Assembly: GCF_030684315.1 (NCBI RefSeq)
Contig: NC_081380.1
Location: 25,293,951-25,357,950 of the forward strand
DNA: 64,000 nucleotides
DNA from: Stegostoma tigrinum
Lineage: Eukaryota
Direction of reading: 5' to 3'
The notes beneath the pieces are model-generated. The model did no database searches. It saw only the letters and a program-made list of their open reading frames with translations, and had not been told where the DNA came from. Both the position numbers and the translations under genes were made by a program. Positions 17,416 through 58,427 of this stretch are shown here, piece by piece; within the stretch, counting starts at the first letter, position 1; each line of letters starts with the position of its first letter.

Positions 17416-18838
17416 GTAATCTCTGATCAGGCGTTATGTATAGAATACCCTTAGGAAAACAATTTTAGAACAGTAAAGAACACAAGACTTTCTGATAAAG
17501 CTGAATAAGCTCCCAATTTCAGGCTGATATGGAGTTTTTAAAATATAGAATAATGTGGATGAAGGAAATGGATTAACACTTTTCATTTGTGCTTAAAACC
17601 TGCTGAGATAGCTGGAGTGAAAGTCTCTGCTGTCTATGAAAGGGTTCTAAGTAAGAGATCGGGCCTGAGGTGAAATGGGTTTGAGTAATATTTGCTGACT
17701 TCCTAGGGAGCACAAAGCTGCTTGTAATTTGATGCTAAATGAGACTTGTAACTGAGACTAATTGATACTTTCACTCCGTGATGCTGTTGTGTAATTGTTA
17801 GTTTGTTACATATTTGATGTATTTGATTTACCTCACAGTATTTCAGAGATGGCACTTGTACTAAGTCTGCAACAGATTTATTTACAGTGCAGTTACTATA
17901 TAAATCTTATGTATTCAAATACTTGTTACATAAAACACACTTTACCTTACTGAATGCCCTGACCTACCTATTACCTGAGAAAAGCTAAGTCCCTGTGAGT
18001 TTTATTGTATATGCTGTTTCTAGTCTACTTCAAAATAACTACTTATAACAGCACAACCTAAAATCCAAGGCTGGGATTTATGGACTTGGGAGGAGTCCCA
18101 CCACTGGCATTGAAAAAAGGGCAGTGAATCTGCCTCAGCGGGCACTGGGACCTGGTGCTACCTTTTGGTGACAGTTGCCAAGTTTAAGAGGCTCCCACTG
18201 AGACTGCCATCCTTCTTAAGGATGACATTCAGGCCCCAAGATCCATTAGCCCTATCAGAAGACCAGTACCATCACCAGCATTACTACCCTGAGGATGAAG
18301 GCACACAAGATGGGTAGCAAAGTTGAGAGCAGGTGACACTCTCATTATGTGACTAAGAAGTGTCTGAAAAGGAGCTCCCACCCATATTGGTTTCATTGCT
18401 GTCACATTCAAATGTGGGGAGCCCCTAGCAGCTGGTAGAATGCCAGCAAGGATGAGAAGAAATCCTTACATGGACACTTAAATGGCTCGATTGGGCTTCT
18501 GGTGGGCAAGCCATGTGCCATCTTTCCCATCATTGGCAAAATGAGATGGCAGTGGGAAGTCAGTGGGCATTACACCTATTGCTTTCTCATGCCAATTTCT
18601 GAACTCCTAATATATCCCTAAAACAGCTGGTAAATTCTAGTTCTAAAATTTCAGAAAAAAAAGGTGTTTGTAAGTTTTAACATTTATGTCTATCTACTTT
18701 CGAGGAGCTTTCCTGCTCCTCGGATGCTGCCTGATCTGCTGTGTTCCTTCAGCTCCACACTGTATTGAGCTTCTTTGGTTCCTGGTCTGCAGTTGATTTT
18801 CAATAATGCACAGCTTTGCATTTTTGTTCTCTCCTTAG

Positions 18839-18967
18839 TCCCATATTAAGATCTCTGCTGCGTATGGCTCCATGAAAGACATTTCAGTTTACAATGTCCT
18901 AGGATTGCCAGCGTCTCAGATCTACATTGTTGGACGCCCGTCAAAAAAATATCAGAACCAGTGTCAG
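18839..18967 (+). CDS. PITPNM3: PITPNM3 exon (SHIKISAAYGSMKDISVYNVLGLPASQIYIVGRPSKKYQNQCQ)
   Basis: ctctccttag| acceptor, cag|gtaatg donor, 129 nt, phase 0 to 0; AAYGS.KD motif. Confidence 0.95.
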
Positions 18968-19474
18968 GTAATGAGTCTCTTTATTCCATGATAGAGAGTT
19001 GAATTAAATTGAGGAATTTAAAACAAAATCTATGACAAGAAACCTGTCAATTACCTCTCAGAGATACCACATTGATTGCAATAACCAGCTATTGTTTGCA
19101 CTTTCCCCCAATTTCTCTTACATTCATATTCAGTTCTTGTTTCTGTTTTTATTTAAGGTTTTTTCTTCCTTCTGCTTGATGCCTTCCTTTGCTTCACAGC
19201 TAGATGCTTAATGCTTGTATTTTTTACCTCTCCAGTCACCTGTAACTTTGTCCCTCTGTTCAGTGAACAGAGAACAGCATGTGGGAAATTGCTGTACTTC
19301 TAACCGGCTCAATGATTTTACGAGCCTTTTGAAGGGGACTGACTGGAGAGATAAACAACCATGATGATGCTTTTTCCTGTGGATTTTCCTCCACACTGAG
19401 ACCACAAACGATCCCAGACATCACCGGAAATTCAGCCTCCGCACGTAAGAGCGCCACCAAGCGGTACAATGGTC

Positions 19475-19496
19475 TACTACACTTGATCTTAGCCAA
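19475..19496 (-). pseudogene. U2 snRNA 5' fragment (nt 17-38)
   Basis: Minus strand TTGGCTAAGATCAAGTGTAGTA, 22/22 to U2 sequence as recalled. Confidence 0.88.
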
Positions 19497-19774
19497 TTTT
19501 TTTTTAAATTTAAAAAATATACTTTATTCACAGAATATACAAAAAATAAACATATTTATACACCTACCCCATCACGCTAGCTGCTCTGGGTTACCCTGGG
19601 GGTATGCACACGAACTAAAGGAAAGAAGCAAAAACAAGAACAAAGAAAGACAAAGAAAATACCCCGGCGGTCATCCCCTCGCACAGTCCCCGTTGGCCCC
19701 CTGACCAGTTGGGGAAGGTGCCAGCTGGGCCCAGTTACTGAGTGAGGCCCCTGTTACACTGTGGTCGAGGGGTC

Positions 19775-20255
19775 TCATACAGTGGTCTTTCCCCACCGCG
19801 CCTTGGTGGCGGCTGCCCCAAGCTTTAGCGCGTCCCTCAGCACATAGTCCTGGACCTTGGAGTGCGCCAGTCTACAACATTCGGTCGGGGTCAGTTCTTT
19901 CAGCTGGCAGACCAGCAAGTTGCGGGCAGACCAAAGAGCATCTTTCACCGCATTGATGGTCCTCCAGGTGCAGTTGATGTTGGTCTCGGTGTGCGTCCCG
20001 GGAAACAGCCCGTAGAGCACGGAGTCCCATGTCACGGAGCTGCTCGGGACGAACCTTGACAAGTAGCACTGCATTCCTCTCCAGACCTCCTGCGCATAGG
20101 CACACTCCAGAAGGAGGTGATAGACAGTCTCATCCCCCCCCCCGCAGCCGCCTCGAGGTGGTGCAGAGATTCCGGGCATGCATAAAGGATCTCTCACATC
20201 GTGCAGTAGACTTTACACTTTGCATATTAACACTCACAACTCGTACCCCCACTGT
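19775..20255 (-). pseudogene. ORF2 remnant: about 18 codons of endonuclease N-terminus joined to C-terminal zf-RVT-like region
   Basis: VGVRVVSVNMQSVKSTARC runs directly into RSFMHARNLC...HLLLEC...ARWGKTTV*; no RT motifs between. Confidence 0.75.
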
Positions 20256-20990
20256 GAGCAGTGACCGCGGTACCCTCCCCGAGTCCAAGGTCCAGCCCCT
20301 CCATCCGTCCCTGCATGCCCGTTGCCCGGGCAAACTGCTGGATGCTCTCTGGGCTGAGGAAACTGTCCGTGCTGCCTTCCGGGTCACACCCCCCTGTCGG
20401 GGGTACGGAGGCAGGAGAGTCCGGCTTTGGGTCAGGGTGGTGACATGCTGTTTCCAGCTTCCCGCCTGAAGGTCTGCTGCTCCCAGTCGCCTGGAGCTCT
20501 GGTTCGAGGGGTCCCGGCAGGGCCCCTGTGGCGAGTGGCTGGGTGTTGGAGCGATCTTCAGGACATCCCCTGTCACCAGGAAGCGGGGGGTGGGTGCTGC
20601 TCTCCTTCTCGCTGGCGATTTTCAACTTCTGCTTCGGACGGCCCTCCTCCGAATCCCCCTCATCAGAGGAGCTTTTATAGCCCCCCTGTAGCTACCTCTT
20701 CCCGCCTGATGGTTGTGGTGCCGGGGCCCGCTGGCGTGCCTTCCTCCTCACCTTCCGGACCGTCGTCCACTCCCCTGGGTTGCCTGTTGCCTCGTCCATC
20801 GACTCCAGGTTATCGGCGGGGGGGAGCGGAGCCTGCAGAGGCACTTTGCTGGCCTCAGGTCCATCCTGCGGGGCTGGGCCCTCCTGTACGCTGGGGGGTG
20901 GGGGGGGGGCGCTATATCCTTGCAGGGGCCTGGTGTCTTCCTCTCCTCTGGGGGGGCTTGCCCTGTGTTGCCCTTGCTGGCGACCTGGGT

Positions 20991-21728
20991 TTAGGTGGTC
21001 CCCCGCTGCGGGCATGCCCTATAGAAGTGGCCTGCTTCCCCGCAAAGGTTGCAGCTTTTCTCTTGTGGGCAATCCTTTGCAAGGTGTCCCTCCTCCCTGC
21101 AGTTCCTGCAGATGGTGGCTTTGCAGTCGGCCGCCATGTGACCTGACCTACCACTGGCATGGCAGACTTTAGGTTGCCCTGCGTAGGCCAGGTAGCCCCT
21201 GCTCCCACCGATCGCGAAGCTGGACGGTGGGTGTATGACATTCCCGTCCGCGCCCATCCTCAGCGTCACCTTGACCTGCCTCTTACTGGTCCAGATGCCA
21301 AAGGGGTCCATGATGTCAGTTAGGTCCCCTTCCACCTTCACGTGCCTTCCAAGGAAGGTCAGGACATCAACTGCTGGCACATGCGGGTTACACATGTGTA
21401 CAGTCACCATACGGCTCCTCTGCACCAGCATCACAAACAGCGGGACGGCGGTCAGTACAGAGAGGGGGCCCTCACCTTCTTTCTCCTTGAATACCTCCAG
21501 GAAGCGCTGGCAAAGCTTGGCACTCCTGAAGGTTACATCAAAGAATCCTCCCCCGGGGAAATCCTGCAGGCAGTAAATGTCCGCAGCAGCGAACCCACAA
21601 CAGTCCAACAGGACCCACTTCATGAAGAAGGTGCGGTCCACAGGTGCAACCTCATCCACTTTCTTCATAGCCACTCTGATAGTGCTCCGGACCCCCTGTC
21701 CTGGGGCACGAGCACTCGCCACAGCCAT
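20991..21728 (-). CDS. Retrotransposon ORF1 (gag-like/ZCCHC3-like), N-terminal open part; continues through frameshifts to about 20230
   Basis: ATG 21728 MAVASARAPG; CRNCREEGHLAKDC and CNLCGEAGHFYRAC CCHC knuckles plus a degenerate third (CHASGRSGHMAADC). Confidence 0.8.
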   Translation of the reverse strand: MAVASARAPGQGVRSTIRVAMKKVDEVAPVDRTFFMKWVLLDCCGFAAADIYCLQDFPGGGFFDVTFRSAKLCQRFLEVFKEKEGEGPLSVLTAVPLFVMLVQRSRMVTVHMCNPHVPAVDVLTFLGRHVKVEGDLTDIMDPFGIWTSKRQVKVTLRMGADGNVIHPPSSFAIGGSRGYLAYAGQPKVCHASGRSGHMAADCKATICRNCREEGHLAKDCPQEKSCNLCGEAGHFYRACPQRGTT

Positions 21729-21894
21729 CGTTGCAGGTCGGCTGCTGCCCTGAACCAGTGTTAGGCCGATGCCAGCATTAAGATCCACCGCTTGCAAGGG
21801 TGCACAGCCAACCCGACGTCTTCCTTCTGCTTCCAACGCAGTCGCTCTATCCTCTTCTCGGTCCACGCTGAGCCACCAAGTGTTACACTTGGTC

Positions 21895-21920
21895 TACTAC
21901 ACTTGATTTTAGCCAAAAGG
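21895..21920 (-). pseudogene. U2 snRNA 5' fragment (nt 13-38)
   Basis: Minus strand CCTTTTGGCTAAAATCAAGTGTAGTA, 25/26 to U2 as recalled. Confidence 0.88.
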
Positions 21921-23344
21921 GGCAGTTGCAGGTCTGAAAGTTAGAGAATTGGATGGATGTAAGCCAGCAGTACTGTGGAAAGCAATGGATGGAATCATTC
22001 TTTTCAATCAAAGTGGTCCTCAGAAACTGCAAAAAAGAATTATTTTTTCCTCAATATCTTATTTTAAGAAATTTCTATTTCAACAATAACTTTTCCCGAA
22101 TGGCTCATTTCAGGATGGTCCTATGTTCAATTATATTGTCTGATGCAATAGTTAGGTTAAAAATATTTTAAAATGCAAATTTGACATGGGCATAAAATAC
22201 AGTAGCAAGATTGATCATATCAGAGAGCAAAAGCAGCTACTGTCAAAACACTTTGTTACTTCTCACAAACATTTCATGCTGCATTTATTTCAATTACAAC
22301 AGGGAATTTAGCTAAACTACAGTAAAAAAAACTGCCAAAATTTACTCTTAAATACATGGTCAGTTACGTTTTTATCAAATTGACAATAGCTTTGCCTCAG
22401 CATCAAATTAACAGCTACACCATCAATTTATTATGGATAAATAATGTAAACCATTCGCTGCTATTTTTATATGCCAAAAATTATTGTGTCAGTTGCTAAT
22501 TGGTTAAGATCATTCCTTTCATGCTTAACAACACAATATTCATACCTCAGGCATGATGTGAACAGGAAATAATGACAGATGAATAACGTTTTGGGGGAAA
22601 CTTCTCTTTGCTATTTTGGGAAGGAGCTTTCAAAAATAAAATTAACTATTTTAACTGTTAATTCTTTCATTATGGGAGCAAAAGCATTTGGCCAGTCACA
22701 TTCACCCAACACAATGTCAAGCCCATGATCTTAATGCTGTAGCTGGATTTTCCTTTCTTAATAGTAGTGAATGCTGGGAGATTCACTGCTATTGAAGGAT
22801 GCAGTGAAGAGGCTTTGGTGCATCACATCGGGCTCCACAAAAATCCACACTGAAGGCCCTGTCATTCTACTTCCTATGGTGGCACAGAGCTTCAATATGT
22901 ATGCTTCGTTGAGAGCCCAGTCTCCCATTACAGATTTTCCTTTAATTACACACCTGGAGAGAAGTGAGAACTCTTTCTAATTGACAGCTTGAAAATGGCA
23001 TAATACTTTACTTTTTGTGTGATCTCTTTTGTCAATGGCTCAATATATACACACAATAGAAAATGGTGTTGGCATGTTATTTCTGATATTGATATTGATG
23101 TTGATACTTTAAACATCTGATTGACTCGACCCCTTATATGTTTGTAGCAACAGGTTATTTTTACTAAACGTTATGGGTATTTGCAAGCAGATCCATGTCG
23201 CCATTATTACTATTGGGTTCATTATTTCTGTAAAGGTTGCATAATGTGTGAGTGGGCATGGAAGTGCCAGGAGTTGGCATGGAAGATTTGAATGGCCATT
23301 GGGAGTGGATGAGAGAAATGAGTTGGCATGGAGGCACATGTATG

Positions 23345-24520
23345 ATCTTTTGAACTGATTGAATTCTTTGAAGGAGAAATGGAGAGGATTGATGAAGGCA
23401 GAGCGGCGGACGTGATCTGTGTGGACTTTAGTAATGCATTTGACAAGATTCTGCAAGAAAGGCTGGTTGGCAAGATTAGATTGCATGGAATTTGGGGACA
23501 ACAAGCCATTTGAATACAGAACTGGCTCAAAAGTAGGAGACACAGGGTGATGGTGGAGGGTGACTTTTCAAATGGGGAAGTCTGTGACCGGTGGTGTGCC
23601 ACAAGGATTACTGCTGGGTCCTTGCTTTTTGTAGTGGACAGTGAAGAAGGTTACCTTGGAATTCAACGGGATCTTGATCAAGCAGGCCAATGGGCCAAGG
23701 AGTGACAAATGGAGTTTAATTTAAATAAATTGGAGGTATCGTGTATTGGAAAGGCAAATCATGAAAGGACTTGTACACTGAATGGTAAGGTTCTGGGGAG
23801 TGATGTTGAATAAAAACACCTTGGTGTGCAGGTTCCTAGTTCCTTGAAAATGGAGACACAGATAGATAGGATAGTGAAGAAGGCATTTAGTATGATTGCC
23901 TTTATTGGCCGGTGCATTGACTATAGGAGTTGGGAGGTCATGATGAGGCTGTACAGGACATTGACTAGGCCACTTTTGGAATGCTGAGTTCACTTCTGGT
24001 CTCCCTGCGATAGGTAGAATGTTGTGAAACTTGAAAAAGGTTCATAAAAAATTTACGAGGATGTTGTCAGGTTTGGAGGGTTTGAGCTATAGGGAGCGGC
24101 TGAATAGGCTGGGGGCTTTTTTCTCTGGAACATCAGAGGCTGAGGGTTGACCTTATAGAGATTTATAAAACCATGAGGGGTATAAGTAGGGTGAATAGCC
24201 AAGGTGTTTTTCCCAGTGTAGGGCAGTCCAGAACTAGAGGGCATTTGTTTAAGGTGAGAGGGGTAAGATTTAAAAAGGGACTTAATGGGTAACATCTTCA
24301 CATAGAGAGTGTTGTGTGTGTAGAATGAGTTGCCAGAGGAAGTGGTAGAGGCTGATACAATACAACATTCCAAAGGCATCTGGAAGGGTATATAGATAGG
24401 AAAGGTTTGGAGGGATATGGGCCAACTGCTGGTGATTGGAACTAGGTTAATATCTGGTTGGCATGGACAAGTTGGAATGAAGTGTCTTTTTCCATTCAAT
24501 ACAGTTCTATGACTCCACAA
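23345..24520 (+). mobile_element. CR1-type LINE 3' fragment, degenerate RT
   Basis: DEGRAADVICVDFSNAFDK and GVPQG..LGP motifs, CR1-like C-terminus, ctatgactc tail. Confidence 0.8.
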
Positions 24521-25160
24521 CTCAAATGGCTTCAGAGTACAAATAATAATTCATGCCTTGCTTGAGAAGCTATGGACCGTGAGTTGGGATAAAAGTGGGC
24601 CCAACTCCATGAAAATGGCAGTGATGTAGTTTCTAGGATGTGCCTAAACTTGAAATGCAACCGAACACATAGGCAGCCCTGGTGTATGCTATAAATAGCT
24701 TATACCACATTTCCTTCCTGATCATGAGCCACATCTTGTGGTGGAAACTCAGTATTGCACCAGTCTTTATATTCTTAGCCAATAAAATCCTTTGGATTAA
24801 GCATTGTTTTGCATCTTTTTATCCTCTCTTCAGCGCTTTAAAATTACTTGGAAGAGAGCTCCAATTTGTTCTGTGCTTTTGAATTATTATTGTTACTTTA
24901 GTCAGAAGACTGTAGTGATAACAACAACAACTGAACCATCATAGAAAAAGGTGCAAAAAGCTGAAAGATTTTCTTCAAACAGTTGTCTTGAGAGGCCAGT
25001 ACAGACCTCAAGATTATGTTGCTGCCTGCATTTTAGGACTCAAGAAGTAATTTTTTTTGTTATAAGTTCATAACTTTTAAAATCAAAAATGATTAAACTG
25101 TAAGGCAGATTGCATAGAGTGGGCTGGTATTCCTTTGAATATAGAAGAGTAAAGAGTGAT

Positions 25161-25437
25161 CTAGATTAGATTAGATTCCCTACAGTGTGGAAACAGGCCC
25201 TTCGACCCATCAAGTCCACACCACCCCTTGAAGCATCCCACCCACCCCTGAACACTACAGGCAATTTAGCATGGCCAATCCATCTAGCCTGCACATCTTT
25301 GGACTGTGGGAGGAAACCAGAGCACACAGACATGGGGAGAATGTGCAAACTCCGCACAGGCAGTTACCCGAGGCGGGAATCAAACCCAGGTCCCTGGCGC
25401 TGTGTGACTTCAGTGCTAACCACTGAGCCACTGTGTT
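25161..25437 (-). mobile_element. V-SINE (HE1-like)
   Basis: Same head, V-domain and (TCTAA)n tail as 9915-10229. Confidence 0.85.
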
Positions 25438-26117
25438 GAGATATTTCAGATTATCCAAGGATTTGACAGTGTACGCCCTGATTATGTCTGTGTTGGGGAG
25501 GCCCACCCACATTATTTAATCTCACCACCAATTGAAACCCCTAATGGGCAATTAATGTCCACTTAAGGACCTCATTACAGACCTCCAGTATTAACCCAAC
25601 AGTGGACTGGGGTGGTCAACACATAGAGCACGTCAAGCAGACGAGTCGTGGCTTGCTTTCAGGCCCCTGGGAGATATGGAGTACCTAGTTTAAAGGAATG
25701 CAATGTTGGCATTGGGAAGGTGGTGACACACTGAATATCCAGCCTTTTCTGCTGACCCCTCTGGGTGACTGCCTCCCACCATCACACATCTGTGGCCTAG
25801 GATCCAGTGAAAGCCCTGATCCCATAGAAATGCTTGCTGCTGTCAAGTGCCTGAGGGAAAGGCGAAGATGTTGAACTTCCCCTGTAAAGGTGATGTGAAG
25901 CCCTTGCCTCCCCTCCAGTTGTACAAGGTTCCACCCCAGATTTCCTGGCAGGGGGAATAGAGAATAAAGGGAAGTAGTCTTCAGAATAGAGTTTGTCCTG
26001 TCAGGAGCAAAATCAGGAAACACTTCCTCACACAAAATAGAAATTCTCTCTGTTGAAAGGCTGTTAATGCTGGGGCTATTAAAGCTTTTGAGCCATAGAT
26101 TCTTAATCTTTGAATAG

Positions 26118-26258
26118 GGAGCGAAGTTGGGAACATGGAGGTGAGATGGAACAAAGGTGGGAACATGGAGGTGAGATGGAACAAAGGTGGGAACGTGGAG
26201 CAAAGTTGGGAACATGGAGGTGAGATGGAGGCAAGGTGGGAACATGGAGATGAGAAAT
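26118..26258 (+). repeat. Purine-rich minisatellite, about 30-bp unit GGGAACATGGAGGTGAGATGGAACAAAGGT
   Basis: 4-5 imperfect units about 190 bp upstream of the last PITPNM3 acceptor. Confidence 0.85.
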
Positions 26259-26445
26259 GGATCAGCCATAGTCGAATTGCATGGCGGAAAGGGCTGAAAT
26301 AACGGAACAGACTAATTCTGTTCATAATATCCCAAGAAGTTTGTTAAAACTTGAAAAATTCAGAATAAGAAGTTGGACACTGCATGGTTCCCTGATGGTT
26401 AGTTTCTGTTTGCTTGACAGTCAATGTCATTTCTTCCTCTTACAG

Positions 26446-26751
26446 TTTCTGTCTGAAGGTTATGCTGCTCACCTGGCCCAGCTGGAGTTCAGTCGCCGCT
26501 CCCGCCCGAAGAAGAGCAACTCGCGAATGATTTTACGGAAGGGGAGCTTTGGCCTGTCTGCTCAACCTGACTTCCTTCGGAAAAGAAACCACTTGCGCAG
26601 GACTATGTCAGTGCAGCAGCCGGACCCACCGTCCTGCAACCCTAAGCCGGAGCGAGCCCAGAGTCAACCAGAATCGTATAAGGAGGAGAGACACCCCCAC
26701 AGCATCGCCTGGGCCCGGAGCGGAGGCTCCAAATCAGAGCCAGGCGTTTGA
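26446..26751 (+). CDS. PITPNM3: PITPNM3 terminal coding exon (FLSEGYAAHLAQLE...RMILRKGSFGL...KPERAQSQPE...PGV*)
   Basis: ttcctcttacag| acceptor, 306 nt to TGA; tail RNHLRRTMSVQQPDPP matches recalled PITPNM3 rather than PITPNM1/2. Confidence 0.95.
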   Translation, partial: FLSEGYAAHLAQLEFSRRSRPKKSNSRMILRKGSFGLSAQPDFLRKRNHLRRTMSVQQPDPPSCNPKPERAQSQPESYKEERHPHSIAWARSGGSKSEPGV

Positions 26752-34147: not shown

Positions 34148-37100
34148 GTCATGTGACTTCTGACCTTGATTGTTCCTGAATGTGACTCCAGCAAACGTAA
34201 CTCACATTGATTTTCAGAATGGTCATTTGCTTACTACTCATTCAAGGCTGTAAGAAATGAGCCAGTATTTGAATCAGGGAGCACAAAAGCAGAACCTTGA
34301 GGACTTGTATACTACTGGGCCAAAGAGACTGGTTTGGGTTGGGAATGTGATTTCCTTATAGGCAGGTTTTGCTGAGGATCTTTCCTGTAGCAACATAATA
34401 AACATTCCATTTGTGGGCTCCCCAAAAATTGGGGAGTAAAGGATGGCTATTCTGTTCAGTCAATCAAATCAAAAAATTTTAATTGCTAGAGCTATGTTAC
34501 AGATTACAGCGATTGTACAGATTACACAACAGCATTTCGATCTTGCAGTTGTAACTACTGCAGGAATGAATAGGAGTCTGTGAAGGCTTTTGCAGATTCC
34601 TCACTCTTTCCTGGACGTTCTGCTGTTGGATCTTCAGGATTGCTGTGAGAGTGAACTCTCGCAAAGCCAAGAGGAAGAGAACAACTCCTTCACTCAAACA
34701 AACATGGATGTAAGTAGTCATCAGCAGCAGGAACCTGTTAGTAGTCTGTCACTAGACAGGACGCAAGATGATTCAGGAGCTCGGGAGGGAATGACAGGCA
34801 AATACTACAACGTGCTCAGGAAACAAGGCCCATTCTCAACCTGTCCAGCATTTTCCTGTACTGCAGCCCTCGGGACTTCAACATGTGCAGTCCATCCCTC
34901 TCCTGGCACCATCTGAACAACGATCGCTCAGACACCCCAAATGTCCACTTACAGTTAAACAGCCTCTCCATAAAAGTAATTTAGGGTACCTTCCTGCTTT
35001 TTGACTTGGGGAAGAGGGTGCTCAAATTGTCAAGAGACATAGGATGCAACAGGTAGCTTGTTAGCTGCTGCCATATACTATACTATATTGCGAAGGCCTT
35101 GTTTAAGCAGGCTGCAGTCATCAGCAGTGACTCATATGAATACCTGTGCCTCAGGAAATGTAGAGGCAACTCATCTGCTGCTTGTAATAGTGTTGAGGGG
35201 TTCGTTCACCTCCCACTGTCCTTTGGAGTGTAGTTGCACAGGCAGATCATGCTGCTGCTGGGAACGACCTTGCTCCTCCTGCCTGTTTTTGGAGAATGAA
35301 CAATGCAGCTGTAGGAGCTGCTTTCATGTTGAGCTGAAGGCTGGCAGCAGGAAAGTGCAATTTACGACGAGTGAAGTGTTAGGCAGTTGAACTGCTTTCA
35401 AGAATTTAGGATTTCGTATAGGCACAGATGAGTTGGACCAAAGGGTCTGCTTCCATGCTGTACATCTCTATGACTAAGTTGATAAAGCATCCTGAGAGAA
35501 AAACTATGAACAGCAGTGTCTCATCTGGCCATGCCTAGAGTGCTTCATGTGTAATTGATCAAAGGGTTCCTAGCTTGTTAGTTTTACTTGAGCTGTCCCC
35601 ACTGTGCATTCCCCTCAGCAACTATGATAAGCTGCTGTTTGGAAAGGAGGGTCAAAAAAAAGAGTCCAGATATATTTGTTCTCCATTGGATCCATTACTT
35701 TCTGCCAGATATAGAGGATTGCTTGCTAGATTCTGGACCTGCATGGTGGGGTGGGGAAGGAAAGAGAAAATGAAAGCAGGTGGGATGATCATCAATCCAA
35801 CATGAAAATGCAGGAGACTTAACTTAGCCCAGCTGGGAAGCTGGCCAAAGCTTCCAATCACATTATTGGTATTAAAGAACAGGCTAAAAGTGTCTGTAGC
35901 TGTAAGTTACAAATCCACAACTTCAAGTTCCTGGTTTATTAATGCAAGCTATTTGTTTAAATATGCATTATAATTATAAGCTATCATGGCAGGGCATAAT
36001 CAATGTGATTTATTGTGCAAAATTATGATAGCAACACATTAATTTATAATGACTCAGATTAACCACAATACAAGTGATAGACAGACATCTTCAGTGCAGT
36101 ACTCTGGCACTTGCCTCACAAAAGCAAATAATTGCCTATGCTTATAATTCTACTGTTGGATTCCCATACTCAATGAAGGGAAGAAACTCAATCTGTGGAG
36201 TACCTTCCTGTGGGAGTGTGGTGTGGAATTGGTGGAAGGTGTCTTAATTTTTCCTACCAGGACAGAAAGCAAGTCAGTCAATCTTCAACCTTTATTTGAA
36301 AGGCAAATAGCAAATATTCTATTCTTTAAACATGTAACCAACTTTGTGGCTGGTCAAAATATTAAGGACACAAAGTTGACCTCTGCGTGAACAATCCCTT
36401 CCTGTGCTGTGTTAACATTCCAGTCAATTAAAGAAACATCAGTCATGAGATCTCATGCTTTATCCAAAAAATGCTGCAGGACACAAGCTTTGTTACAGAT
36501 ATGAATGTTTAATCAAATATGATTATATTTTGAAAAGTTACAAGACGTTTTCAAATAAACATTGCTTTCACAGTGAATACACTTACATGTGAAACATCTG
36601 GAAATCCTCTGCATTGAAGTGAAGTCAATTGAACTCATTTTTACATTATAATCTACTTTCATTTCATTACATGGTTATGATTTTCAATTTGGAGCAGAGC
36701 TTACAAAAATTATCCATGTCAGTTATGACAATGCATTTTTCAGCATTAGATCATAAACCTCATGCAGTTGTCAAAGTCATTTGTAATTCCCAAAATGACC
36801 AATATGCTGAAAACTAATCCTTTATTATGCCATGAGAATACATGAGATTCTTTTTGTAAATCTAAAAGAAATGCAGATAATCTTGCACTCTATCCTGTGA
36901 TCGGAAGATTCTAAAACTGTAAAAATGTTTTGGTTACAAATATAAAAGATCAAATTTCATGCCAGATGCACAATTGCAGAATACAACAATGTTGTATGTT
37001 AAAAAAAGCTTAGCTAAAATGCTATTAGAGCTCCTAAAACATATGGCTTAAGGTAACTTATAATAACTGCACCATAACGCCAAAGAGCTTACGTCAATTA

Positions 37101-38616
37101 AAAAAAATTGATATTAAATTCCTTCATAATGAATTGACACATATAAAAACGAAGTGTCACACAACTTCTGAGTGTAAGTGGCTTACCCAGCACTAAATTT
37201 CAAAATACATCAAAAATCAAATCTGCAGTGTGACTGAGGAAATGAAAATTTACATGAAAACTGGCAGAGGACCAAAGATATGAGCTTCTGGAATTTGTTG
37301 CATTCCATTACCCCTATTTTTCAATCCAGTACAAGTCACATGGCAAGAAATCACATGCAATTCTTGTTCTCTACCCAAGTCTTTCAAAAAAAAAATCTAA
37401 CCTCTCCTACAAAAAAGCCCTTTGAGACGACTGTATATTTCAACCAGAGAAATGTCTATTGACTAATCATTTTTTGCACAGTAATTTGACTGAAAAAGAG
37501 AACATTAGCTACAAAAATAAAGTTTAAATTGGAAAATGTCAATGTACAGGAACAGAGTAGTATACGAATTAGTCAATTCCAGACTTTAGGTTCAACAACA
37601 CAAATATACACTCACTCTTAACACAGTACCTATTCTCAGCACTTGGCCAATCACATGCAGCATCTTACTGGTTTAAACTATAAATTTATGCCAATTTAAT
37701 AAACATGCTAAAATACAAATAAAATGGCATTTATTTGGTTAAAGGAATTTGTGTTGCTTGATCAAGTGGTATCGATCAAGCAACACAATGTAAAAAGAAA
37801 TAAAATTCTAAACATTCTTTGCTAACACTTAATTGGTAAATTCTCCGGTCTGTAATTTTAATAATCCCATTTTAAATTATGCTTTATAATTTAAAAAAAT
37901 TCAGAGTCCCTGCCAAAAACAAAGTTGTTCCATTCATGCAGTGATCAATTTTTAAAGTCTGTTAATCATAAGTAACCTTTTGAAACTCAAACTGCTACAA
38001 AACAAATTCACAATCATTTTCATGCACGAAGCTTTGATGTTTTAAAATAGTTTAGCAACTGAGAAACAACATTTACACAATATTGTGTTTAGAAATTAAA
38101 TTAATAAAAAAGGGACAACTAGATCTCTAGAAAACATTTAATCATCCCCTTTACACTAACTGCCCCTAGAACAGAAGTATGCTGGTTTATAAACCACTGT
38201 GTACACCACTGGTTAATTCCAACAGCATTTTCTCAAAACTTTTCATCCTAAAATTGTGAGTAGTTTTAATTTAGTTGAATAGAATCCCAAACCAGGAGCA
38301 GATAATACTTCACCTATAATGATTATGAATGGCGAACAAACTAATTTTGCTCAAGTACTGGAGAACAAATGCCTTACCCTGCAGTAAAATTCAAAGTACT
38401 TGCAGGTGAGACCAAAAGTAGCCAGTCGTCATGAGATAATCATAATTATGAAATTACTGTAGGTGTCCATATAATTCTACAAATTGTATTCATGTTTAGA
38501 ATAATAGAACAAAACAAAAAAAAATACAAAGCAGACAAAACCAGTGAGGCAAAAAACAGCATTTGGTAACACACTAGGCAGATTGCCAAGTGAAAGCCAG
38601 AGAAGACAATCTTTGT

Positions 38617-41340: not shown

Positions 41341-41572
41341 GAGACAGTAGGACCTGCAGATACTGGAGGATCTGAGATGACGAGGAGGTGTAGAGCTGGA
41401 TGAACACAGCAGGCCAAGCAGCATCAGAGGAGCAGGAAAGCTGATGTTTTGGGCCCCGACCCTTCTTCAGAAATCACAATTCAGAAATTTCTGAAGGAGG
41501 GCCTAGGCTTTCCTGCTCCTCTGATGCTGCTTGGTCTGCTGTGTTCATCCAGCTCTACACCTTGGTATCTCA
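41341..41572. mobile_element. Palindromic non-autonomous PLE derivative with 14-bp TSD
   Basis: Two inverted copies of the PLE terminal segment; GAAACTCTGACAAT at 41327-40 and 41573-86. Confidence 0.85.
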
Positions 41573-44500
41573 GAAACTCTGACAATACTCATTTGATGAT
41601 GATTTCAAAGGTTAGAAGTTAGCACAAGAAAGATAGAAAGATGCACGGACTGATCACGGATAATCAAAGTGCTGAAATATACTTCAGTTGGATACAGTAG
41701 GCAGTAGGACCAGAAATATGTTGACCGTTATTTAACCCAACTACTCCTTAAAACAGGTTTCAGTTGAATATTTCAACAGGCTTCAACTGAATCCCAGAGG
41801 AAGTGCCTCAAAGTATTCCAAGAATTTTGAGATAATGCATTCTGTGTCTGCATTTAGCCCGAGGCAGTCTGCAATAGCCTGCTAGAGGGATTTGCTTCTA
41901 ATGATTACTTGTTTCCAGGCAAGAAAAACAGCAGTTTGACTGTTTTAAAATTAATTGTGCCAATGACAGTGTAAATGTATTTAGTAGATTTTGAATTTTC
42001 TAAGTTTTGCACTTTGCACAACTCAGGATTCATGAAAATCAAACCAAACAATGATAAAATCTCAAACAGAAAATAGTAATGTTTAAAAATCAAACAAGGA
42101 AAGCAAGAAGGATGTCATCCAGTGATAAAGCATGAATGGAAGCAGTGCCTTGAAATGATGAAATTCTGCTCACAAAATTATCAGAACAAACCACACAGTA
42201 ACTCACTGTCTCCCCGAAGCTTGTCCACCACTTAAAAGGCAAAAGTCAGGAGTAATGAAACTTGCTTGGTCATCAGCTTTAGGACAAAAAAGCCCGCTTG
42301 ATTGATACCACATTGTAGAGAGGGTTAATGCTGAAAGGTTGTCAATGAGAAGTGTGTACCATATACAAAACATACTCCAGTAACTCAGCAAGCCATCTCC
42401 AACAACAGCTTTCAGGTCCACTGTCTCTACTAAAGAGGCAGGCAGCTAACGCCATGGGAACACCATCCACTGTAAGCCCCCCTCTAAGCCAAACACAATC
42501 CTTACTTGAAAGGATTTTTTAAAAATTCACTTGTGAGGTGCAAGTGTCACAGACTCACGTTGCATTGACTATGCAACCCTAATTGCTGTGTAGACAATGG
42601 TGAGGAGCCTTATTGAAGTGCTGGCAAGGAGGTATTTCTAGAATATTGACCCAGCAACAGTGAAATAACAGCTATACTGTCATTGTACCTTCTCTGTTGC
42701 GTCAAAATCCTTGAACTCCTTTTGTAACAGCACTGTGTATATATGTTCTTACACCCGAAAACTGCAGTAGTTTAGAACGGCAACTCACTATTAGCCTTTT
42801 ATGGGTGATTAGGGATTAACAATAAATTCTGGCCTACCCTCTGATGCCCACAATCACATGAATGAATAAAACAAAAAAGCTCCCAATTAGAACCACCATC
42901 TTGAATACCCATCCCAGTGATGAATAATTGAAATCAAACTGAAAATAAATTCAACCTCCAATCAGACATCCTCATATGTTGTTTCTGGGAGTTTAGAATC
43001 AGGGGCAAGGACTTGCTTAATTTAAAAATGATCTACATTTTTTCAGTTGAGCCCCACACTGGTTCTTTTTCCCCTCTGCTCATCACTGATTGGCTCAATG
43101 TGTATGTGCTTCCATTTGTCAAAAAAGTGCCCATTTTGTTACTCCTCCCAGTGAGATCTTGTGTTGACAATGCTCTAAGCCTAATCTCCATTTGGGCTGC
43201 AGCAGATTACATTGGAAAGTTGCTCCTCACTGGCAATGTGTTTTTTTTCTCTTTAAATTTAATTCAGTAAAATTAATTATTGAATTAAATACTATATTGG
43301 TCATGTTGTATGCATCGCTCAGTACCTCTTCAGAATTGTTACATATTGATGTTAACATTATTTATTATATGGTGGTAATTATTAAAAATCATTTAGTGTA
43401 AATCAGTTTTACTGAAACTCCGGTAACATACATTTTTATCACCATGAGAAAGTAATTAAATATGTTGAGCTTCTTTCCTGAATTGCTACAGTCCTTAAAG
43501 TGCTGTTATGAATGGTCTTCCAAGTTATGGAACAAAGGACAGTGACAACCTGGTAACACAGGTCTGGGGAGGGAGGGGGGAGGGAGGTTATGCTGCCATG
43601 CATTTGTTTTTCTAGGTAGTAGAGAGCACATTTTTTGGAAGATGGCTTAGTTACTGCATTGCATTTCGTAGGTGCTACAGACTAGTGCACATTTGCATCA
43701 GTAGTGAAGGGATTGAATATCGCTTTGAATACTAACTAAATGGCCTGCTTTTCCCTGGATGGCGTCAAGCTTGAATGATGTTGGAACTGCACTGACCCAG
43801 GCAACTGGACAGCATTCTGTCATACTCCTGACTTGTGCCTTGTAGATTTTGGGCAGACTTTGGAGAAAACAGGAGGGGAGTTATTCCCTGCATCCAACTC
43901 CTCATGGGTTCTGAATCAAGAGGTAATATCAAAATACAAAAACAAATTGCTGTAGGTCTGGCAGCATCTATAGAGACAAGTAGAGTTAACATTTCAGGAT
44001 CACAAACCGATACGTTAACTCTATTTTTTCACCTATGATGTTGCCAGACCTGATGAGTTTTCCAACAGTTTCTGTTTTTGTTTCAGATTTCCAGTAGGTA
44101 ATTTTTTGTTTTATTTTGAAATCCAAGGTTAGTTTCAGATCCACTCTTAAATCCTGATCTGATGGGCCTCATTCTTGGCCCATAGTAACTTGTTCTAGCA
44201 CACTCCAGTGCCAACACATTCTCCTCCAATCAACTCCATTTCTCAGCCACCCATTTATCAATTTCCCTGACCCAACCCATGCTAATTGTCATCTTAAAGC
44301 ATCTCCAAAAAAAGTGTCACTATGCTGCAGATAAAGTTCACAACGATAACTGCATCAGATGTAATGAATTTGAAATTTTCACCTAAAGGGACAAATTGTA
44401 TTGGACCAATCAAATACAAGTTGCTATCTGAAGAACTATGAAGAGTCAGGAGACCATCTCCCAGCCTGCACTTACAACCATTCTTCCCACAATCCACTGG

Positions 44501-55140: not shown

Positions 55141-55677
55141 AAGCAATGAAGTACTGTTATCAGCTGTAGGCATTGTTGTAGGATGTCAAGGAAGCAGTTT
55201 GCTAACAGCAAGCTCCTAAAGCTCACACCCATCCATATATTAAAGCACATGGGGAAAAACAAACCAAGGTGTAAGTTTTAAGTTATTTTGAAAAGAGAAC
55301 AGATGTAGAAAGCCAGAAAAGTTCAGGGACCTTACTTGAAGGCACAGCCGCCAACAGAAGACAGTCAAGATGCCAGAATTAACAGAGTACAGATATTTGA
55401 GGGTTTTTGGGGCTGAAGGGGATTACTGCAATAAGGGGAGTCAAAAATTTGAAAACAAAACAATGATGTGAATTTTAAAATCTTGCAGCTGTTTTACTGT
55501 GAGTCAGTGTAGGTCAACAACAGGACTTGATCTTAGTTAAGACAGGGAGCTGTAGAGTTTAGGGTGACCCAAAGATTATAGGGATCTCACAAACAGCAAT
55601 GAAGTATAAACCATATAACAAAATGTGAGGCTGGATGAACACAGCAGGCCAAGCAGCATCTCAGGAGCACAAAAGCT

Positions 55678-55705
55678 GACGTTTCGGGCCTAGACCCTTC
55701 ATCAG
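55678..55705 (-). ncRNA. Minimal hammerhead ribozyme core, intact
   Basis: CTGATGA-A-GGGT(CTAG)GCCC-GAAA-C-GTC; palindromic ACGT in place of stem III, as described for PLE minimal hammerheads. Confidence 0.7.
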
Positions 55706-57882
55706 AGAGGGGGATGGGGTGAGGGTTCTGAAATAAATAGGGAGAGAGGGGGAGGCGGACCGAAGATGGAGAGTAAAGAAGATAGGTGGAGAGGTAGGGA
55801 GGGGATAGGTCAGTCCAGGGAAGACGGACAGGTCAAGGAGGTGGGATGAGGTTAGTAGGTAGCTGGGGGTGCGGCTTGGGGTGGGAGGAAGGGATGGGTG
55901 AGAGGAAGAACCGGTTAGGGAGGCAGAGACAGGTTGGACTGGTTTTGGGATGCAGTGGGTGGGGGGGAAGAGCTGGGCTGGTTGTGTGGTGCAGTGGGGG
56001 GAGGGGACGAACTGGGCTGGTTTAGGGATGCAGTAGGGGAAGGGGAGATTTTGAAACTGGTGAAGTCCACATTGATACCATATGGCTGCAGGGTTCCCAG
56101 GCGGAATATGAGTTGCTGTTCCTGCAACCTTCGGGTGACATCATTGTGGCAGTGCAGGAGGCCCATGATGGACATGTCATCTAGAGAATGGGAGGGGGAG
56201 TGGAAATGGTTTGCGACTGGGAGGTGCAGTTGTTTGTTGCGAACTGAGCGGAGGTGTTCTGCAAAGCGGTCCCCAAGCCTCCGCTTGGATTCCCCAATGT
56301 AGAGGAAGCCGCACCGGGTACAGTGGATGCAGTATACCACATTGGCAGATGTGCAGGTGAACCTCTGCTTAATGTGGAATGTCATCTTGGGGCTGGGATA
56401 GGGGTGAGGGAGGAGGTGTGGGGACAAGTGTAGCATTTCCTGCGGTTGCAGGGGAAGGTGCCGGGTGTGGTGGGGTTGGAGGGCAGTGTGGAGCGAACAA
56501 GGGAGTCACGGAGAGAGTGGTCTCTCCGGAAAGCAGACAGGGGAGGGGATGGAAAAATGTCTTGGGTGGTGGGGTCAGATTGTAGATGGTGGAAGTGTCG
56601 GAGGATGATGCGTTGTATCCGGAGGTTGGTGGGGTGGTGTGTGAGAACGAGGGGGATCCTCTTAGGGCGGTTGTGGCGGGGGCGGGGTGTGAGGGATGTG
56701 TTGCGGGAAATACGGGAGATGCGGTCAAGGGCGTTCTCGATCACTGTGGGGGGCAAGTTGCGGTCCTTAAAGAACTTGGACATCTGGGATGTGCGGGAGT
56801 GGAATGTCTTATCGTGGGAGCAGATGCGGCGGAGGTGGAGGAATTGGGAATGGGGATGGAATTTTTGCAGGAGGGTGGGTGGGAGGAGGTGTATTCTAGG
56901 TAGCTGTGGGAGTCGGTGGGCTTGAAATGGACATCAGTTACAAGCTGGTTGCCTGAGATGGAGACTGAGAGTTCTAGGAAGGTGAGGGATGTGCTGGAGA
57001 TGGCCCAGGTGAACTGAAGGTTGGGGTGGAAGGTGTTGGTGAAGTGGATGAACTGTTCGAGCTCCTCTGGGGAGCAAGAGGCGGTGCCGATACAGTCATC
57101 AATGTGCCGGAGGAAGAGGTGGGGTTTAGGGCCTGTGTAGGTGCGGAAGAGGGACTGTTCCACGTAACCTACAAAGAGGCAGGCATAGCTGGGGCCCATG
57201 CGGGTGCCCATGGCCACCCCCTTAGTCTGTAGGAAGTGGGAGGAGTCAAAAGAGAAGTTGTTGAGTCTGAGGACGAGTTCAGCTAGGCGGATGAGAGTGT
57301 CGGTGGAGGGGGACTAGTCGGGCCTGCGGGACAGGAAGAAGCGAAGGGCCTTGAGGCCATCTCCATGCGGAATGCAGGTGTACAGGGACTGGACGTCCAT
57401 GGTGAATATGAGGTGTTGGGGGCCAGGGAATTGGAAGAATTGGATGCCACCCGAAGGTTGCAGGAACAGCAACTCATATTCCGCCTGGGAACCCTGCAGC
57501 CATATGGTATCAATGTGGACTTCACCAGTTTCAAAATCTCCCCTTCCCCTACTGCATCCCTAAACCAGCTCAGTTCGTCCCCTCCCCCCACTGCACCACA
57601 CAACCAGCCCAGCTCTTCCCCCCCACCCACTGCATCCCAAAACCAGTCCAACCTGTCTCTGCCTCCCTAACCTGTTCTTCCTCTCACCCATCCCTTCCTC
57701 GCACCCCCAGCTACCTACTAACTTCATCCCACCTCCTTGACCTGTCCGTCTTCCCTGGACTGACCTATCCCCTCCCTACCTCCCCACCTATACTCTCTCC
57801 ACCTATCTTCTTTACTCTCCATCTTCGGTCCGCCTCCCCCTCTCTCCCTATTTATTCCAGTTCCCTCTCCCCATCCCCCTCT

Positions 57883-57910
57883 CTGATGAAGGGTCTAGGC
57901 CCAAAACGTC
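57883..57910 (+). ncRNA. Minimal hammerhead core, GAAA changed to AAAA
   Basis: CTGATGAAGGGTCTAGGCCCAAAACGTC. Confidence 0.55.
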
Positions 57911-58427
57911 AGCTTTTGTGCTCCTGAGATGCTGCTTGGCCTGCTGTGTTCATCTAGCCTCACATTTTGTTATTTTGGAACTCTCCAGCATCTGCAGTTC
58001 CCATTATCTCTGAAGTATAAACCATATCATTTGTTTAAGCGATGTTGGTTTGGAGATAAGCTTTTGATCAGGACATTATGGAGAAGTAAGCAAAAATTAA
58101 CGTGACACTGTCTGCAATGTAAGGAACGCAGCCAATTGCCACATCAGCCCATGTCAGTGGAACCAGTCATGTATATTTATCGTACAAGTTATATTACAGT
58201 CCACCGCGGTCAGGCACACAGTACGTTATCTGGGAAATGTCTGCCAGCTGAATAGTCTGAATAGTCAATGCTGCTGGCTTCCAAATTACTTTTACACTTT
58301 TCTACTAAAATAAAACTGGAGTCCATATTTTTCTTAAGCAATGTCAGTTTTTGAAACCTTGACGTTTTAAATGGAATAATGGCACTGCTACACTCCATGG
58401 TGTCAAGTGTAAGTAAAAACAAGTTAC

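Follow-up and report, generated by a model that had tools for sequence, protein, structure and literature searches.

How many U2-headed elements lie in the last intron of this shark's PITPNM3, and is the shorter one a SINE? Two sequences that start with a piece of U2 snRNA occupy the intron (18968-26445 of the window, by which we mean the whole stretch of 64,000 nucleotides that was analysed), both antisense to the gene. One adjoins the 5' end of a LINE copy (element A), and the other leads into a short non-coding sequence (B). A preliminary description, made from the letters alone, read them as two related 5' ends in tandem and gave the shorter as a candidate U2-headed SINE-like element at 19220..19496. 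The feature is real. It is a short repeat with a U2 head, low in copy number, half as long or so as proposed and of a general kind already known; a later LINE probably duplicated its head. Coordinates are collected in Table 1, with U2 nucleotides numbered as in the Rfam U2 alignment to a retrieved U2 gene.

Table 1. Features of the locus, with positions in the window
Feature	Position	Strand	Remarks
PITPNM3 penultimate coding exon	18839..18967	+	Bounded by AG/GT
Sequence beyond the short repeat	19220..19386		Depth single-copy (measured 19220-19312, inferred 19313-19386); strongly self-complementary
Body of short low-copy repeat B	19387..19474	-	Rich in CpG; multi-copy in both samples; stops at four A in a row
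Left copy of the duplicated block	19449..19496	-	U2 nt 17-38 plus 26 nt
Left U2 snRNA nt 17-38	19496-19475	-	Exact 22-nt match; start of the left copy
Element A, 2.4-kb non-LTR retrotransposon copy, taken to be Tx1-type	19497..21869	-	Poly(A) at 19497-19505
ORF2 remnant of A	20158-19778	-	About 20 N-terminal codons fused to the last ~126
ORF1 of A	21728-20248	-	One stop and one frameshift relative to the closest relative
Right copy of the duplicated block	21870..21916	-	U2 nt 17-38 with one change, U2-like 11-mer, 8-bp hairpin
U2 nt 13-16	21917..21920	-	Upstream of the right copy only
PITPNM3 last coding exon	26446..26751	+

The stretch is elasmobranch DNA, and its plus strand carries the 3' exons of PITPNM3. 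Three of the four exons match the LNS2 domain, and the last is 97% identical to a shark PITPNM3. The intronic DNA of the locus studied here is most likely inert. Sequence from 18800-19497 was present in four of ten listed sequencing-run rows, all with one species label and from one study; none of the listed runs that contain it is an RNA run, which says nothing either way about expression. Depth was taken from sequencing contigs of two samples (contig sets X1 and X3), and contig depth summed in this way is not a copy number. The contig tool also silently removes matches to human DNA, so that contigs rich in U2 could be lost and A's head could appear shallower than it is. A bisulfite run (X5) had too little depth and too much conversion to tell the heads apart. 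The left junction is contained in an X1 contig (record 1, 18980-19550, 0 other letters), and the right junction in contigs from both sets (X3 record 16, 21842-22300, 0 other letters; X1 record 8, 21771-22300, 11 other letters). The junctions are thus not an assembly artefact, with the reservation that one run may be the window's own sample.

On the minus strand, A's poly(A) (a T-run on the plus strand) is followed directly by the left U2 nt 17-38 and then by GACCATTG...GCGCTC (19474-19449), which resembles A's other end. The left and right copies of this block, 48 and 47 nt long, differ by four substitutions and two indels. That the sequence after the left U2 fragment is similar to the 5' end of the big element, as first described, holds beyond chance: over the 21 nt past GACCA, the match was equalled in 13 of 100,000 GC-matched segments of the window. 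Past GCTC the similarity is at chance level, with the next 15, 25, and 40 nt equalled in 1522, 2623, and 2029 of 5000 draws. We recognized no trace of U2 nt 1-12 beyond 21917-21920 and no Rfam U2 match in the window; two further U2-like 12-mers (27521 and 55536) do not extend. In the right copy, the 11 nt that follow U2 nt 38 match U2 nt 25-35 at ten of eleven positions, a quality of match reached at most 137 times in 200,000 under a null in which the U2 copies of the window itself were left in. By its letters, this 11-mer looks like either an internal duplication or the remains of an earlier, additional U2 fragment.

This genome holds a small number of copies of a U2-headed unit of ~110-135 nt. 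Depth over 18980-19312 is at the single-copy level (5.38 in X1, 15.5-17.4 in X3), rises to 25.9 and 281.2 in the bin 19313-19423, and reaches 66.9 and 819.8 at 19403, or 12 and 50 times single-copy. The next bin (19424-19534; 20,834 and 53,854) pools the head of B and the 3' end of A, so it gives no separate depth for B's first 70 nt. The earlier claim that a U2-headed non-coding sequence occurs here more than once is therefore borne out for ~19387-19496, and these depths speak against a single-copy sequence. The extent proposed for it is not: depth is back at single-copy by 19312 at the latest, which makes B ~110-135 nt rather than 277, and the excess in the bin 19313-19423 fits an edge near 19387. 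Both runs give 19387 for this left boundary, an estimate from one depth bin on the assumption of a flat plateau. The CpG content noted earlier for the non-coding sequence divides in the same place. Six CpGs fall in the 88 nt at 19387-19474, a number reached by 13 of 727 window bins, whereas 19220-19386 has two in 167 nt, the window average. This outer part contains an inverted repeat (19220-19238/19340-19358) and a palindrome (19254-19272).

No other copy of B was found in the 64-kb window with blastn. In X3, a contig whose depth is single-copy (23.2) runs from 19468 straight into 21899; its left part follows B, and 13 of its letters side with A's copy where B changed. As the right-flank contig is unbroken, we take the joining contig to be a third locus rather than an allele lacking A. 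This third U2-headed copy would be a family member close to the common ancestor. Another X3 contig, with a depth of 148.5 and a 3-base insertion at 19403, is absent in X1.

We looked in B for the marks of a retroposon and of a gene. We found no target-site duplication (TSD) around it and no poly(A) tail, with runs of four and five A only, at the estimated end of this copy. Nothing in B matches the motif patterns of the Pol III A and B boxes. ARAGORN reported 0 tRNA genes and Rfam no tRNA, 5S, or 7SL match; in 19150-19520 Rfam gave nothing above E 0.65, and snoRNA or ribozyme origins were likewise at chance level. No ORF remnant was detected downstream of B, either with tblastn (0 matches at E<=0.5 for 41 proteins against 18969-19496) or with the ORF1 HMM (best E 0.88). 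A 70-codon minus-strand frame in B was considered as a gene and rejected. Its best Atlas value was 0.82, with low recognition, and each of its three phmmer matches was to a tandem-repeat protein whose score added up many weak stretches, the best of them at 29.6 bits.

On the minus strand, 19190-19500 has a more stable predicted fold than 100 of 100 shuffles (z -4.9, compared with -1.9 for the plus strand). G.U pairs number 11 among 87 predicted on the element strand and 0 of 76 on the other, counts that favour any G/T-rich strand. The best 150-nt window over B reaches z -5.4, chosen among 152. Since 3 of 320 control windows reach z -5 and 5 of 320 reach -3.8, folding alone is no proof of function. 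Minus-strand helices cross 19387, so B may extend further than the depth suggests. The strongest-folding control windows lie at 34501-34650, 37701-37850, and 1701-1850 (z -7.8, -6.9, and -5.4).

Element A is a dead LINE, which we take to be Tx1-type from its architecture (an ORF1 with RNA-binding and CCHC domains, an ORF2 zinc finger, and poly(A)). Pfam places RBD_ZCCHC3_1st/2nd and zf-CCHC on ORF1; a zf-RVT match in A falls below its cut-off. ORF1 has 15 longer relatives, including some from sharks, rays, and salamanders. The ORF2 remnant is 86% identical to a shark protein; its endonuclease and reverse transcriptase are deleted. RVT_1 is carried by three of 26 relatives of the ORF2 tail. At 20193, the sequence of 23 and 37 contigs departs from that of A, so most copies of the family lack this ORF2 deletion. 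The family is abundant: depth over 19535-21865 runs from 1,563 to 197,891 in X1 and from 2,906 to 761,820 in X3, beside flanks at 5-10 and 15-35. Its 3' flanks are mixed. The 200 reads loose before 19499 agree at 0.67 and have no U2 likeness, and the spacers in tandem copies differ from each other, from which it follows that A is not U2-specific. In six of twelve listed rows (of 19), a 5'-truncated copy of the family lies 6-33 letters from another's tail, which suggests repeated insertion at or near earlier sites. A differs from eight listed pieces in contig set X8 by 5-18% (10.4% overall) and is itself probably 5'-truncated. Many contigs of the family stop aligning at 21826, where A is diverged. 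X8 record 23, aligned with 21584-21826, continues for 149 letters that match neither of the heads (both head bins are at depth 0), which is a further hint of 5' truncation in A.

At U2 nt 38 the locus resembles Keno (of the Tx1 clade) and Utopia, whose insertion site, as described in the accounts we consulted (PMC4640811, PMC6136364), also ends the U2 sequence there. Those accounts place U2 nt 39 onward, inside the U2 gene, in the 3' flank of both elements (PMC4640811, PMC6136364). A differs in that its tail is followed by U2 nt 17-38 and then by non-U2 DNA. We considered A as a Keno insertion and rejected this, as no U2 nt 39 or later follows the tail and the family shows no general U2 target specificity. 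There was no named Keno protein among 41 protein matches.

These observations bear on whether the intron holds two heads or one. We give an even chance to our best reading, in which B was split by the 5'-truncated, internally deleted A, leaving a diverged TSD of 47-48 bp, so that the two apparent heads are one. Under it, B (U2 nt 13-38 or more, then ~88 nt) would already have stood in the intron as a member of a low-copy family, likely a retroposed chimera made by a LINE reverse transcriptase adding U2 5' fragments through template switching. The U2-like 11-mer after nt 38 would be an older, shorter addition of the same sort. A, from an abundant family without U2 specificity, would later have inserted by target priming at U2 nt 16/17, within the head of B. 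A second-strand nick ~48 bp downstream would then have left B's first 47-48 bp on both sides of A, and the two copies would have decayed separately since.

Several details agree with the splitting of B. A's poly(A) abuts the block, and U2 nt 13-16 occur on the far side only, as a split target predicts; we also count the abrupt stop at GCTC in its favour. Depth speaks to A's supposed head directly. The bin that holds it (21866-21976) has depths of 14.9 (X1) and 70.9 (X3), next to 43,705 and 149,557 in A's 5' UTR (21755-21865), and exceeds the flank by at most 5.1 and 8.3 single-copy equivalents. With the head bin near single-copy beside a family depth in the thousands, the A family does not normally carry this head. 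Nor was the head depth simply drawn to B, since most words of a hypothetical shared head were placed on A's side in a placement test (30 of 33 31-mers, 24 of 32 35-mers, 16 of 27 40-mers, and 14 of 17 50-mers). The probability of four or fewer substitutions in 46 sites is 0.51 at 10% pairwise difference, 0.12 at 16%, and 0.03 at 20%. The four found among 46 aligned sites fit A's age, and a long, diverged TSD explains the extended similarity at least as well as shared ancestry of two elements. The preliminary description had argued from similarity past the 27-bp repeat to two related 5' ends; given a family generally without the head, that argument loses its force. The joining contig of X3 and the headless X8 record point the same way as the depth.

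Against the splitting of B stands the length of the duplication. At 47-48 bp, it is two to three times the published TSD lengths that we compared, namely a peak of 14-16 bp reported for L1 (PMC2912911), 16 bp given for SINEU-3 (PMC4494074), and 20 bp given for reptile Utopia (PMC4640811); the L1 account does mention extremely long TSDs with 5'-truncated copies (PMC2912911). The landing of a non-specific LINE inside a rare 130-nt repeat would also be a coincidence, unless such sites are preferred. B's head keeps CpG as well as A does (6.8 and 4.6 per 100 nt), so B need not be the older of the two, and B itself showed neither TSD nor poly(A). The low depth on A's head counts for less because many family contigs end their alignment at 21826 already and U2-rich ones may have been filtered out. 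A reading with two separate heads needs no very long TSD. Here template jumping would have linked A and B in a single integration, or a small subfamily of A would have captured B's head, and the 47-48-nt block would be shared 5' sequence. We find this rather doubtful. The crocodilian SINEU-2 and Tx1-11_Crp, as described in PMC4494074, offer a precedent, the like retention of CpG in A and in B's head agrees with it, and so do the closely spaced tandems in A's family. However, A's near single-copy head and the headless X8 record exclude a family-wide head. The register, with the left copy running from nt 17, the right from nt 13, and the tail abutting nt 17, would have to be coincidental, and no TSD surrounds the A and B composite (no shared 7-mer).

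Where B itself came from is a further matter, and one origin is compatible with its later splitting by A. B could be the 5' junction of a U2-specific LINE of the Keno or Utopia type, that is, U2 nt 1-38 and the 5' UTR of that LINE, whose joint transcript, driven by a U2 promoter, was retroposed as a short copy without a tail; its other copies would lie in U2 gene clusters. The U2 similarity stops at nt 38, where the Utopia and Keno 3' flanks described begin at nt 39 (PMC4640811, PMC6136364), and tailless, 3'-truncated snRNA retrocopies are described as common (PMC2912911). The 148.5-depth contig found only in X3 points to several near-identical copies, and the fourfold depth difference between samples is what arrays would give. 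Yet no ORF1 or ORF2 remnant was found 3' of B by tblastn or HMM, and the U2-like sequence after nt 38 can explain the junction without a LINE; we judge this origin unlikely. Lower still in probability is that a truncated U2 pseudogene and its neighbouring DNA were multiplied passively, by segmental duplication, as a satellite, or inside another transposon. The lack of tail, TSD, and promoter boxes in B and its low copy level would suit such a history, as would the five of seven metagenome loci (L006-L010) in which a U2 5' fragment ends at nt 38 and unrelated DNA follows. Longer repeated flanks would be expected from it, whereas the repeat spans just ~110 nt and is flanked on either side by single-copy DNA. 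We think it most improbable that the plus strand, which is sense to PITPNM3, encoded an intronic C/D-box guide RNA that paired with U2 and was later disrupted by A. The U2 complement is indeed sense to the host gene, and a heptamer like a C box and a tetramer like a D box occur at 19361 and 19396, respectively. But going downstream from the U2 complement, one meets no D-like tetramer within 10 nt, so the complement is not adjacent to a D box; Rfam again gives nothing above E 0.65 in 19150-19520, the plus strand folds poorly (z -1.9 against -4.9), and the head occurs in multiple copies and under a single species label.

The known elements nearest to B in description are SINEU-1, -2, and -3, snRNA-headed SINEs of crocodilians that end in poly(A), number 137-7,700 copies, show TSDs on occasion, and target Mariner (PMC4494074). 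B is like them in being short and non-coding, in having a 5' head that comes from U2, in lacking Pol III boxes, in the partial duplication within its snRNA part, and in the adjoining Tx1-type LINE. For SINEU-1, both a second, older U2 fragment and an internal duplication are described, and recurrent 5' addition and partial duplication of U1 and U2 pieces are reported for SINEU in general (PMC4494074). Unlike SINEU, B has no tail or TSD that we found, apparently far fewer copies, a length of ~110-135 nt, and a shark host; the comparison is by description rather than by sequence. With the tail absent in this copy and the evidence on dispersal and TSDs inconclusive, we do not class B as SINEU. 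It resembles SINEU-type SINEs and is a candidate SINE only. As to a target preference shared with a Tx1 partner, the insertion of A into B's head would be one instance only. The U1- and U2-headed Tx1-Mar LINEs (e.g. Tx1-11_Crp) are described as sharing a U2 head with a short element (PMC4494074), and at face value A does the same; unlike in Tx1-11_Crp, the head is not family-wide in A, and a duplicated target is more likely.

Other classes fit B less closely. The tailless or chimeric snRNA retrocopies made by L1 are described as 3'-truncated snRNA 5' fragments fused to other sequence without poly(A) (PMC2912911, PMC4476161), which is also how B looks, but those are presented as one-off events with TSDs, and B's junction between U2 and body recurs at another locus. 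Pol III SINEs with tRNA, 7SL, or 5S heads have internal A and B boxes, unlike B. The preliminary description stated that snRNA-headed SINEs are known from crocodilians and that none are known in sharks. This agrees with PMC4494074, where the text on distribution reports that SINEU was not detected outside crocodilians, and the passages on snRNA-headed SINEs in PMC5381603 repeat the crocodilian case only. The listings of our literature search, which covered papers rather than repeat databases, likewise showed no shark U2-headed SINE.

A bolder interpretation is that B belongs to an undescribed shark SINE family, with U2 heads acquired independently of SINEU, that was mobilized by A's Tx1-type family and served it as a preferred target at nt 16/17. 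We hold this to be unlikely, somewhat more so than an origin of B at a LINE junction. It would entail repeated U2 additions (nt 13-38 onto nt 25-35), a site unused by Keno and Utopia, and an RNA that perhaps reached ~19220, folded over 280 nt. If it were true, this would be an independent, shark case of an snRNA-headed SINE, and Tx1-type LINEs would repeatedly create snRNA-headed short retroposons; the shark family would also be a test system for the transcription of elements without an internal promoter. As it stands, the intron contains one decayed copy of a low-copy repeat and a dead LINE that is probably flanked by a TSD of unusual length. The lesson is that a U2 fragment before a Tx1 copy can be a duplicated target rather than the element's own head.

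We also scanned metagenomes and viral sequences for such junctions. U2 nt 17-38 followed by GACCA occurred at 0 loci in the metagenomes, and U2 nt 14-38 not followed by T at seven, of which none resembles B or the 5' UTR of A or gives a match to ORF1. In L006-L010, an exact U2 fragment of nt ~11-38 gives way to non-U2 DNA. The flanks of L007 are only 70-82% alike with those of L008 and L009 over more than 1 kb, so the U2 fragment is better conserved than its surroundings. A 17-nt junction pattern was found at eight viral loci (L012-L019), which we take as chance in long contigs. Four IMG/VR contigs of 1,753-1,862 bases (L001-L004) carry U2 nt ~12-40 near 965-1078 in A/T-rich DNA. The motif lies beside an apparent gene end, which is unexpected in contigs of small-virus size.

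Elsewhere in the window, a common short repeat occurs in inverted pairs at 41386-41579 and 55615-57973, together with inverted LINE fragments whose arms are up to 98% complementary. One of the inverted pairs forms a long hairpin and has a weak match to MIR3704 (E 0.0032, below cut-off).
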